A stretch of DNA of 64,000 bases from Candidatus Enterousia sp. (GTDB lineage Bacteria; Pseudomonadota; Alphaproteobacteria; Rs-D84). Positions within the stretch are counted from its first letter, which is position 1, and the number at the start of each line of letters is the position of its first letter. Location of the stretch: positions 2,507 through 66,506 of the forward strand of contig JAZROX010000013.1 in NCBI GenBank assembly GCA_045648945.1, read 5' to 3'. Below, piece after piece: positions 51,101 to 54,100 of this stretch. A program made the position numbers.

Positions 51101-54100
51101 GATAATATTTTTCTTTAATTATATGAAGTCGAAATTAAATGGCCAAAGATTCTGGCCGGCATTTTTTGAAATGATGTTGGTGTGCTTTATCGTGACCATG
51201 GCATCATTCATCATCGGCGAAGGCGCAAAAATATTCTTTGGTATAGTGATATAAATTTATCACTTGACCAAATTTGTTGAATATTGCTAATCTTTAATTG
51301 TCGGTGGGTATTCCATCGATGGGGTGTAAGTACCCGTTTGAGTTGCGTCCAATATTTTTGGACGGAAAATCTCCAACCATGGCGGTTGGAGGGTTGCGAA
51401 TATATTGAATAAGCACACAATTTCAACTCAAATTGTACTTAACCTCCAACCACTGAATTTTCGGTGGTTTTTAATTCCCTTTAAAGTCCCCTTCAGGTTT
51501 CCTGAAGGGGGGGACCGGCGGAGCCGGTGGGGTAGACAGTGAAAGGAGGAAAATATGAGAAAAATTTTAATATCGATAATTTGTACATTATGCGTGTGTT
51601 CGGCATTTGCGGCGGGTGAAAATGTTGCAACATCCAAGGCCTTTGTTGACGCCGGCGTAGCACAAAAACAAGACAAAATTTCCGCAAATACAAACCCCAA
51701 CAACAGCCCCGACCAAGTTCTTACCAACACCGGTGAATCGGGCACCGTTGGGACAAAAGATATTTACGATTCATCCGCCGCATACGCCGGCCAAACCGAT
51801 TCTTTGATTGATGCCCAAACCATGAACGCAGGTGTCCAAAACGCCATCGATACGGAATTCGAATGTATATCATATAATGCAAATGGGGATTGTTTGTTGG
51901 TTCGCCTGGCCGGAATCACGGAATTGCCAAGTGGATATACCGAATTAAAATATCTGCAAGGTACCGGTGAACAGTATATTGATACGGGCCTGTATTTCGA
52001 TTTTTCTTCAAGTTATAATATATTTGGCAAGGCAACCAATATCGATTTACAAAATCGTAATGTTATACTCGGTTCATATTCTGACCAGGTTGCCTACTCC
52101 TCAAATTCTATAAGTTTTGAATTTGGTGGTGGTGGATATTCCGACTATTCTGGACATTTTAGAGTTTGGGCCAGTTCTATGGAAGAAAGTGCCTGGTCGG
52201 CAAATGCCATTCCCACAGATGTCGAAGTTTTTTACAATATGGTATATAACCCGGATTCCAAGGTACTGGATACCAATATCAAGTATAACAACGATCATCA
52301 GAACCTCCGTGTTGTAGTAGGCAGAGATGGTCTTACCAGGAGCGGTTTAACAATGCGTTCTTTGCGTTTTTTTAGAGATCACAGATCATATAATTCATCT
52401 GAAATAAAGTATCCAATTAAAATTGGTGAACATAGAATATATAAAAATAACGTCGCAGTTGGTGTTTTTATCCCTGCGCGGCGGGACAGTGACGGCGTAT
52501 TAGGAATGTATGATACGGTAACAAATACTTTCCTTACCAATTCTGGTGATGGCGAATTTATTGCAGGGCCGGCGGTCAACCAATATATGCCGTCCGGAAA
52601 TTAAAAACGGTGGCAACCGCCACCGTTTCACTAACCACTAACACTAACCACTATCCACTAATGACTAAATCTGTGGATTATCGTCCAACATTGCCGAAAA
52701 TGTTGCGGTTGCCACACGTTTGCCGTCTACAAACGCCGTTCCGGTGAATTTGTGCAGTTTCATTTTTGACGCGATTTCTTCGATATGCAATTCCAATGTG
52801 TCGCCCGGCAAAACCATGTGTGTGAATTTGGCATTTTCAATCGTCACAAAGTATCCCAACGCCCGGCCACCATTGTTACCAATCGCGTTCAAAATACAAT
52901 AGCACGCGGTTTGTGCCAATGCCTCGATAATCAAAACCCCGGGCATAATCGGTTTTGCCGGAAAATGACCCGCACACCAAAATTCATCATTGCGAACATG
53001 CTTGATACCCACCGCGGTTTTGTCGGTGCATTCGCGAATCTCGTCCACCAGGCGCATGTTGCCCCGATGTGGAATAACGCTTTCTATTCCCTTTGTGTCT
53101 ATCATCTTTTCCCCTTAGTCATTATTTGTATGTTTCCTTAACCACGCATAGTGCCGCAAGAATTCCGTTCCCGGTCCGGCCGGATAACCCATATGCTTTG
53201 CACCATCGGGTACGTCACGGAAAACACCACTGTTTGCGCCAATTTCGGCATCATTACCGATTTTAACACCGTTTGCAATTCCCACATGTCCGGCCAACAA
53301 CGCCCGGTCGCCAATCTTGACACCGCCGGCAATTCCAACGCCGCCCGCCAAAAAGCATTCTTTGCCAATCACGACGCCGTGTGCAATCTGGCACAGGTTG
53401 TCAATCTTGGTCCCGTCACCAATCATTGTATCAGTTAAAGCCCCACGATCGATACAGGAATTTGCACCTACCGACACCCGGTCGCCCAAAATGACGCGTC
53501 CAACATGCGGGATAAATACGTTGTGACCGTCTTGACGAGTATAACCAAAACCGTCTTTACCAATAGACGCGCCGTTGTGAATCACGCATTCCGCACCAAT
53601 AGTTGCGTTTTCAATGTGCGCGCCCGAATGAACAACCGTTCCGCGTCCAATCGTAACGTTCCGTCCGATATATGCGTTCGGATAAATCTTGACATCGGGT
53701 TCAATTACCGCGCCGCGTTCAATTGTCGCGAATTGCCCGACATAGACACTGCGCCGATTGCGGAAATAAACACCGCGTTCAATATATGCGTCACCCGACA
53801 CACCACGCCGCGGCGGTTCGCGATATACTTCACCCAAAACCTTTACAATTTCGCCACGCGGACTGGCACACACCAACAATGTTGCCCCCGCGGGTGCATG
53901 CGAAACCATTTCTGGTTGAACCAAAATCACCGATGCGCGCGTGTTTTCCAACACAGATACGGGTAATATCTTGAACGCGTTGCTGTTTTGCTCGGTGGAA
54001 TAAAACGCGACATCACCGGGATGCGCATCGGCAATCGGTGCGATTCCCTTGATGATTGTGTCGGCGTTTCCACGCAGTTCCAGACCAAATTTTTTGGCCA

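Follow-up and report, generated by a model that had tools for sequence, protein, structure and literature searches.

Gene-end TAGTG arrays of Candidatus Enterousia as probable arms of small, hairpin-centred insertion elements

Short tandem arrays of a TTAGTGG/CCACTAA repeat occur at gene ends in a 64,000-nt stretch of Candidatus Enterousia sp. (Alphaproteobacteria; assembly GCA_045648945.1, contig JAZROX010000013.1, positions 2,507 to 66,506; hereafter, the window), and one of them lies next to a terminator hairpin and contains the stop codon of fabZ (52604-52667). What are these arrays, and why do they sit at the ends of genes? A sequence-only reading of the window had described nine of them and proposed that they close all six reading frames and serve as Rho loading (rut) sites behind intrinsic terminators. 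Here, we found that the TAGTG repeats are a real, non-random, and polar family, which adds a new form, with its own sequence and architecture, to the known intergenic heptamer class. We consider it probable, though well short of certain, that each array is an arm of a small, non-coding insertion element with a hairpin at its centre, and that these "heptamer-armed" elements form a lineage-specific family.

Position, polarity, and length of the TAGTG arrays

The window arrays were searched for using Tandem Repeats Finder and our own scan. All nine arrays were recovered, each touching a hairpin, and no further array was found in the 64-kb window. A two-unit probe with at most two mismatches gave 15 matches in the window, compared with 0.23 expected from shuffled sequences. 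The five stop codons that had been placed at array edges were as described: mreB TAG (2093-2095), infB TAG (6926-6928), infC TAA (26016-26018), sspB TAG (39314-39316), and fabZ TAG (52665-52667). The identities of mreB, infB, infC, and fabZ are based on NCBIfam model matches, and that of SspB is based on Pfam (PF04386, 1.8e-27). An Rfam scan of the window returned three tRNAs and nothing else. The array at the fabZ end and its hairpin are as follows.

52629..52667, minus strand: focal array of six units, TTAGTCA TTAGTGG ATAGTGG TTAGTG TTAGTGG TTAGTG
52604..52628, minus strand: focal terminator hairpin, AAAACGGTGGC-GGTT-GCCACCGTTTTT (read on the minus strand), immediately adjoining the array's inner end

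On the minus strand, fabZ ends with cag att TAG TCA, and its stop codon sits in the first, degenerate unit of the array; the five remaining units follow, and then AAACGGTGGCGGTTGCCACCGTTTTT. The hairpin is common to fabZ and the convergent plus-strand gene at 51555-52604, and it has a good T-tract for minus-strand transcription but a poor one (TTTC) for the plus strand.

In the whole assembly (1.25 Mb, 93.6% complete), we counted 90 arrays of at least three units. At most 5 of the 90 arrays overlapped an ORF by more than 16 nt, with ORFs called by a longest-ORF proxy that covers approximately 90% of the genome. With the outer end defined as the 5' end of the TAGTG strand, the end of a same-sense gene was located there in 57 arrays, and 42 of these 57 stops fell between -23 and +7 nt from the array start. 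The stop codon was the TAG of the first unit in 19 genes, so the arrays indeed donate stop codons, as had been claimed. For annotation, it is of note that many TAG stops and C-terminal residues in this genome come from repeat DNA. A GC-containing hairpin was located 0-2 nt from the inner end in 36/90 arrays and from the outer end in 5/90, against 5% for random intergenic positions. Thus, across the genome as in the window, the arrays are intergenic, tied to stop codons and hairpins, and rarely inside ORFs.

The arrays also have a preferred orientation and length. Among neighbouring arrays no more than 600 nt apart, 21 were convergent, 1 was divergent, and 4 were in tandem (binomial p = 1e-5). 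The number of units per array showed a sharp mode at five (3 units, 10 arrays; 4, 13; 5, 52; 6, 8; 7, 5; 8, 1; 9, 1), and arm patterns of 31-32 nt recurred at many sites. The unit had been given as 7 nt; this was the spacing in 224 cases, while 125 spacings were 6 nt and 3 were 8 nt. The units are TAGTGGN (7 nt) and TAGTGN (6 nt), represented by TAGTGGT (n = 113) and TAGTGT (n = 94), and the commonest arrangement is TAGTGGT followed by TAGTGT with a period of 13. The TAGTG core is fixed, and positions 6 and 7 of the unit are variable. Units such as TAGTGGT and TAGTGT have no GGG runs and hence lack G-quadruplex potential.

We then weighed the proposal that the arrays are six-frame stop blocks which, transcribed as CACUAAC, load Rho to back the intrinsic terminator. 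A rut site is an unstructured RNA segment of roughly 60-80 nt, rich in C and poor in G, that follows an ORF in the transcribed sense. The composition reported for the CACTAA sense was reproduced (approximately 38% C and 1% G), the genome has a rho gene, and for convergent neighbours, e.g. the gene at 51555-52604, the array lies behind the hairpin in the CACUAAC sense. Additionally, three frames on the TAGTG strand were closed in 8/9 arrays of the window and 72/90 of the genome. However, all six frames were closed in only 2/9 and 46/90 arrays, respectively, and homologous arms in other phyla are often without stops: non-TAGTG arms around PF05635 genes (see below) closed three frames in only 18/53 cases, so the six-frame block is not a property of the class. 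As for Rho, genes whose stop is touched by an array have it upstream of the terminator, where it is transcribed as G/U-rich UAGUGG and not as CACUAAC; the composition is therefore right in one sense only. The arrays showed no orientation bias relative to transcription (25 same-sense tandem contexts vs 23 antisense), their length of 31-32 nt is short for a rut site, and the C-rich arm can pair with a partner in 42/90 arrays. These results indicate that the Rho rut idea is unlikely, and we give the combined function of stop block and rut site a very low probability.

Paired arms, cargo, and turnover of the elements

If the arrays are arms of insertion elements, an arm would consist of approximately five TAGTG(G)N units (31-32 nt) and would be polar, with the TAGTG strand reading inward to a hairpin or other cargo. 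The cargo between two convergent arms could then be a tRNA, a small gene cassette, a terminator, or an AT-rich module, and the putative prototype copy is the one in which the arms enclose the single PF05635 gene of the genome. The elements lie between the stop codon of a gene and its native terminator. The remaining elements of the window, together with one related cassette elsewhere in the genome, are listed below (C numbers denote contigs).

1566..2093, minus strand: arm-bounded cassette 3' of mreB, with arrays at 2062-2093 and, inverted, at 1566-1596
6911..6928, minus strand: solo array of three units; the first TAG is the infB stop, and the inner end adjoins the hairpin AAACGGTGGCAGGTGCCACCGTTTTT
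25504..26015, minus strand: second arm-bounded helix-turn-helix (HTH) cassette, 3' of infC, with arrays at 25991-26015 (minus) and 25504-25535 (plus)
27916..28037, no strand assigned: small paired element with arrays at 27916-27947 (plus) and 28013-28037 (minus), and AT-rich and terminator hairpins between them
39314..39344, plus strand: solo array of five units; the first TAG is the sspB stop, and the inner end adjoins the hairpin AAACGGTGGCGGGTGTCACCGTTTT
1625-2054 and 25557-25990 of the window, and C52:103577-104037 of the genome: three paralogous HTH cassettes, each with a 73-aa XRE-type HTH ORF and a structured leader

Several kinds of cargo recurred between paired arms. A composite of approximately 140 nt, present in approximately 12 copies, consists of an arm, a terminator hairpin, approximately 45 nt with TCTGGAATTTTATTTATAATTCT (the TCTGGAAT module), and a second arm. 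In approximately five copies, the arms enclose a 36-nt hairpin, TCTGGAAT..ATTCCAGA, and two tRNA genes are also enclosed by arms. The three HTH-gene cassettes, two of which are in the window 3' of mreB and infC, are each bracketed by inverted arrays and placed behind an essential gene. In the mreB cassette, the order on the minus strand is mreB stop, array, terminator, leader, HTH ORF (73-aa type, within 1625-1963), hairpin, and inverted array. At infC, the native terminator is located just outside the cassette (approximately 25477-25503). The HTH leader gave a weak sRNA-Xcc1-like Rfam match (E = 0.0023), which is below the gathering score; apart from this match, Rfam found only tRNAs at the cassette loci.

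In structure predictions, paired elements formed long hairpins whose stems are made of the arms (z of -4 to -12). For the element at 27916-28037 (C13:30422-30543), a single long hairpin was predicted (minimum free energy, -45.6 kcal/mol; z, -7.9). Selection for arm-to-arm complementarity was considered and rejected, since partner arms are no more alike than non-partners; pairing is still possible in shifted registers.

Two further hairpins were observed in contact with the arrays. The GC-rich hairpin CGTCACGACCGCGGCGCGGCGTGCCGCGACGGGTG is nested in TAGTG arrays and splits them at C8:6160-6206, C8:42090-42128, and C27:8591-8625, and it also occurs at the fabZ site of a relative (G051, locus L140); it resembles a further, very small insertion element for which the arrays would be the target. 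The hairpin GTTATCCGTCTCCGCTTCGCTRCGCCGAGAC recurs at array inner ends (C27:56973-57005, C52:104068-104106, C12:25265-25300, and C13:67830-67868).

A comparison with related genomes, which the sequence-only reading had suggested, showed that both the presence of arrays and their unit number vary among relatives. In a survey of 201 species genomes of the genus using a strict four-unit pattern, arrays were found in 35 genomes with counts of 1-37, and the present genome was the richest. At the fabZ site, distant congeners (FabZ 61-71% identical) have the terminator directly after the stop codon and no array. Among closer relatives (FabZ 76-89% identical), the array was present in 5/12 and absent in 7/12; those present have 3-5 units, one of them split by the nested GC hairpin, and the terminator hairpin at this site differs between species. 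Gut metagenome runs X1 and X3 contain strains with two extra units in the fabZ array (+14 nt behind 52628). The number of units changes by slippage.

Related strains differ in the presence of whole arm-bounded cassettes. At infC, a contig of metagenome X3 (depth 12, approximately 93% identical across infC) joins 26034 to 25503 via 21 other letters, and it therefore represents a related strain without the whole infC cassette, including both arms. At this joint, the end of infC directly meets the hairpin that, in the present genome, flanks the cassette on its outer side. Another X3 contig joins 1569 to 2097; its aligned side is 37 nt, which is moderate evidence and suggests a relative without the mreB cassette. 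Several other metagenome joints between arrays, with aligned sides of less than 30 nt, were set aside as repeat artefacts. In the short-read assemblies of related strains (runs X1-X4 and X8), contigs break at nearly every array, and the arrays probably contribute to the fragmented genome assemblies in this group.

Could the arrays instead be plain simple-sequence repeats, generated by slippage and template switching at hairpin feet, immobile, functionless, and tolerated where no gene is broken? Heptamers are a known over-represented class of long simple-sequence repeats in prokaryotes (cited in PMC4679880 and PMC4692102), and the unit number differs between strains and, at one site, between species, as slippage predicts. 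However, the length distribution peaks at five units and does not decay, and the polarity of neighbouring arrays is strict (21:1). The recurrence of 31-32-nt arm patterns and of the composite of approximately 140 nt at approximately 12 sites, and the presence or absence of whole cassettes with both arms, also argue against this explanation. In addition, empty sites and identical multi-module elements at non-homologous sites were partly seen, and across phyla this architecture goes with a single gene family. We therefore regard simple repeats as an improbable account of the arrays.

In terms of the insertion-element model, the position of the arrays could be explained as follows. Insertion at or just before a stop codon would still end the gene. 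It would be harmless at an ORF end because the inward strand carries TAG in every frame, and the surviving insertions would consequently hug stop codons and "donate" them. Stop donation would be a by-product and not a purpose, since most homologous arms elsewhere leave frames open (three frames closed in 18/53, as described above). When transcribed, paired arms may form stems of approximately 30 bp, which RNase III would cut as in 23S rRNA intervening sequences; the genome does encode this enzyme. Solo arms would become a spacer between the stop codon and the terminator.

Several observations weigh against insertion elements. No transposase or recombinase was identified for the arms. No target-site duplication was identified either, the filled and empty infC sites (approximately 93% identical) being too diverged to read one. 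The search for Y1/REP-associated tyrosine transposases (RAYT; PF01797; REP, repetitive extragenic palindromic) gave no match in the 93.6%-complete genome, while control genomes matched, and a REP/RAYT origin was rejected on this ground. Viral contigs had neither a relative of the PF05635 protein nor an exact array. The similarity between the two arms of a pair did not exceed that between arms of different elements (0.64 vs 0.69), so perfect stems are not maintained and the pairs are not simple recent fold-back copies. The fabZ-site array persists across species despite the changed terminator hairpin, which is a hint of selection or homogenisation, as opposed to mere junk. In 26 array-bearing genomes of the genus, no PF05635 gene was found (the eight richest were checked at E <= 10), and one of these genomes has 30 arrays at 94% completeness; thus, arrays persist without the gene. 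Finally, the ORF calls used in the census come from the longest-ORF proxy and not from a gene finder.

The S23p/IVP gene and heptamer arms across phyla

The genome has a single PF05635 gene (C8:8477-8842; product of 121 aa; E = 2.4e-36 to 2.6e-36; TIGR02436, 1e-34). This family is annotated as "23S rRNA intervening-sequence protein" or "four helix bundle protein" (TIGR02436) and is an Avd-like pentamer family. The element that contains the gene (C8:8443-8847) has arrays on both sides: one array ends 2 nt before the ATG, and the inverted array encodes the last residues and the stop codon. Accordingly, as in elements of the intervening-sequence type, a PF05635 ORF is enclosed by complementary tandem-heptamer arms. 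The location differs from helix 25/45 of 23S rRNA, since the gene-bearing copy lies between protein genes and the window arrays lie behind mreB, infB, infC, sspB, and fabZ.

The S23p element is directly upstream of a gene whose product has the N-terminus MKQSHIRNFSIVAHIDHGKS (C8:8848 onward; loci L027-L037), which, judged from sequence, looks like lepA (LepA/EF4). The same downstream gene was observed in this genome and its relatives, and therefore the gene-bearing copy occupies a conserved chromosomal position. A promoter-like site, TTGATA-17-TATCAT (10/12 matches; C8:8405-8433, L153:156-184), is located between two tandem arrays, and its -10 region (TATCATTGCCGCA) is kept in relatives L027-L037. 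This site ends 10 nt upstream of the array in front of the S23p ATG, so the 5' untranslated region (UTR) of the S23p transcript would be essentially the array. Autoregulated RNA-binding proteins typically have a layout of this kind. There is no obvious Shine-Dalgarno sequence at the S23p start on C8.

Inverted arrays flanked the PF05635 copies in every case inspected within the genus. TAGTG-type PF05635 proteins went with TAGTG arms, and diverged proteins with TAGAGCA/TAGATAA or AGTGATA arms. We then analysed 80 PF05635 loci, one genome per species across bacteria, of which 77 were usable; 321 ORFs from the same loci served as controls, and the inverted-repeat threshold was the 95th percentile of the controls. 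Flanking inverted repeats exceeded this threshold at 65/77 PF05635 loci and 9/321 controls. An array with a period of 7, 13, or 14 was present in at least one flank at 71/77 loci vs 43/321 controls, and in both flanks at 47/77 loci vs 2/321 controls. The heptamers were lineage-specific (e.g. GGAAGAC, GTGAACA, AGTATTT, TTGGTAC, GAGTGAA, and GTTATCG). The 5' arm was G-rich in 58/64 cases and the 3' arm C-rich in 56/63, a polarity that matches the 21:1 convergent polarity in the present genome. Arms around PF05635 genes typically had 4-5 units, with a mode of 4. Published observations on Xanthomonas and Coxiella (see below) accord with this pattern.

Additionally, several different heptamer families were observed near the PF05635 gene at loci L046, L084, L085, L091, and L093 of other phyla, so one genome can host more than one arm type. 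Long multi-module arrays were also seen near PF05635 genes, e.g. GTGAAGNGTTGAGAGTTGAGA in horse-gut Bacteroidales.

These results raise the question of whether the S23p protein reads the arrays. To our knowledge, S23p has no catalytic activity. The conserved S23p gene is the only candidate partner for spreading the arms, and recognition of the arrays by the S23p pentamer is speculative. A different explanation is that the arrays are operator-like sites for the pentameric four-helix-bundle protein S23p/IVP, with one heptamer per protomer, and mark a putative post-transcriptional regulon. As with TRAP and HutP, the ring would have RNA or single-stranded DNA wound around it, and the protein would regulate itself via the array-made 5' UTR; such binding is compatible with the arrays also being mobile. 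This explanation accords with PF05635 genes that are array-flanked across phyla with lineage-specific heptamers and conserved polarity, with the constant TAGTG core beside variable positions 6 and 7, with the promoter-like site 10 nt before the array, and with the fabZ-site array that was retained across species despite hairpin turnover. The S23p of this genome matches XCC0516 (PDB 2GSC) at E = 3e-21; 2GSC has five chains, the family is homopentameric (PMC4990558), and arrays here peak at five units. In the genus, TAGTG-type PF05635 genes and TAGTG arrays co-occurred (9/14 vs 26/187; odds ratio 11, p = 6e-5), a correlation that is confounded by shared ancestry. In contrast, the 26 array-bearing genomes without a PF05635 gene, the eight richest of them even at E <= 10, speak against a binding partner of this kind, and the Coxiella S23p is apparently not made in vivo (PMC4990558). 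The strict argument that five units correspond to a pentamer is weakened by the mode of four units around PF05635 genes in other phyla, and Xanthomonas also prefers four (PMC4692102). On balance, we consider an operator function for S23p doubtful.

A broader proposal is that PF05635 proteins and heptamer arms constitute one ancient protein-repeat system across phyla, in which the pentamer recognises its cognate array as RNA or single-stranded DNA, one unit per protomer, and drives the spread of arm-bounded cassettes or the processing or regulation of their RNA. We put this forward tentatively, as a possibility that falls well below an even chance. The TAGTG arrays alone are one more lineage-specific intergenic repeat; their value is that of a clean, compact example, in which 90 copies occupy a genome of 1.25 Mb, polarity is strict, and gains and losses can be dated. 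In assembly, contigs break at the arrays. The cross-phylum tie to S23p/IVP is the part worth following. It ties three puzzles to one gene family, namely gene-end heptamers (Xanthomonas, Nostoc, and Beggiatoaceae), S23p rRNA intervening sequences, and MITE-like (miniature inverted-repeat transposable element) hairpins behind stop codons. We found no paper that links PF05635 to dispersed heptamers, and the link looks unpublished. We know of no function for the PF05635 family, which has a solved pentameric structure. If the protein-repeat system is true, it would explain the excess of heptamer simple repeats in prokaryotes (cyanobacterial short tandemly repeated repetitive sequences [STRR], GGGAATC, and TAACTGA), the origin of 23S rRNA intervening sequences, and what a very large family of orphan proteins does.

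Avd-like proteins partner the reverse transcriptases of diversity-generating retroelements. The genome contains two genes for reverse transcriptases of 345 and 349 aa (C35:5861-8459, C40:1-1020, and C33:2843-4673), and next to each gene lies a small accessory ORF that is not Avd; C33 looks like a prophage. On C35, a pair of repeats near 7600 and 8290 resembles the template and variable repeats (TR/VR) of a diversity-generating retroelement, and the longest array of the genome (nine units, C35:8034-8091) lies between them. No link between arrays and reverse transcriptases was shown: the reverse-transcriptase loci have their own, different small accessory ORFs, and the PF05635 gene is elsewhere. 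In the window, a 796-aa ORF with a P-loop (48321-50711) looks, as judged by eye, like a type IV secretion coupling protein (VirD4/TraG-like).

Comparison with known repeat systems

REP elements, bacterial interspersed mosaic elements (BIME), and MITEs (e.g. the Correia elements of Neisseria) are small, non-coding intergenic palindromes with lineage-specific expansion. They are often found in the gap from stop codon to terminator or where two genes converge, and their RNA hairpins are targets of RNase III and RNase E. As with MITEs, the TAGTG elements show convergent arm pairs (21) and a cassette that is absent in a related strain. In contrast, their arms consist of tandem short units and not of a unique terminal inverted repeat, and neither a target-site duplication nor a cognate transposase was found. 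By description, the TAGTG elements are also set apart from REP, BIME, and Correia elements, having no GTAG-tagged single palindrome and no RAYT/Y1 transposase.

TRAP and HutP are oligomeric rings that read evenly spaced UAG/GAG repeats next to a terminator, and HutP reads UAG-N4-UAG-N4-UAG with a 7-nt period. We know of no sequence or fold relationship between these proteins and PF05635. They compare with the TAGTG arrays only in how a putative S23p-binding array might work.

The sequence-only reading did not recognise the repeat family, and neither TTAGTGG nor CCACTAA was found as a named repeat in the literature. The arrays nevertheless belong to a described class of intergenic heptamers (PMC4692102, PMC4679880, and PMC4990558), with which they share a preferred unit number, proximity to stop codons, and convergent inverted pairs. 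Xanthomonas campestris has 186 GGGAATC arrays, which prefer four units and include 70 convergent pairs (Rehm et al. 2015, PMC4692102). Like the TAGTG arrays, the GGGAATC repeats of Xanthomonas and the GGGGAYT repeats of Nostoc are dispersed intergenic tandem heptamers with a preferred copy number (four there, five here); in Xanthomonas, they likewise lie 0-50 nt from stop codons or overlap them, form convergent inverted pairs, and differ in unit number between species (PMC4692102). Repeat #15 of X. campestris overlaps the start codon of the PF05635 gene XCC0516 (supplement of PMC4692102), just as an array adjoins the start of the PF05635 gene in the present genome. The Xanthomonas and Nostoc units are G-rich and were studied as G-quadruplex formers (PMC4692102), whereas the TAGTG units have no G-runs. 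Alternating 6- and 7-nt units, a stop codon in the arm, and direct fusion to terminator hairpins also distinguish the TAGTG arms from those of Xanthomonas, for which arm-bounded gene cassettes were not described and the link to XCC0516 was not drawn (PMC4692102).

TAACTGA repeats occur in marine Beggiatoaceae, Cyanobacteria, and Bacteroidetes, and were proposed to be sites for an unknown RNA-binding protein or to be carried on mobile elements (MacGregor 2015, PMC4679880). They resemble the TAGTG arrays in being intergenic, in having 2-6 units with stops in three forward frames, and in occasionally overlapping the end of the upstream ORF. However, TAACTGA repeats are mostly located just upstream of start codons and rarely form inverted pairs (one in 170) (PMC4679880), whereas TAGTG arms are mostly at gene 3' ends, adjoin hairpins, and often form convergent pairs.

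The closest parallel to the gene-bearing copy is the intervening sequence of 23S rRNA. In Coxiella, tandem GACAGAT heptamers with a strain-variable copy number precede the S23p ORF, and RNase III cuts in the GACAGAT arm stem (Warrier et al. 2016, PMC4990558). In Coxiella and Leptospira, as here, the PF05635 ORF is enclosed by complementary arms, and a selfish or mobile nature of the S23p intervening sequence has been suspected for a long time (PMC4990558). The Coxiella/Leptospira element is single-copy and located in helix 45 of 23S rRNA, whereas the element described here lies between protein genes and is accompanied by approximately 90 gene-less arms at gene ends.

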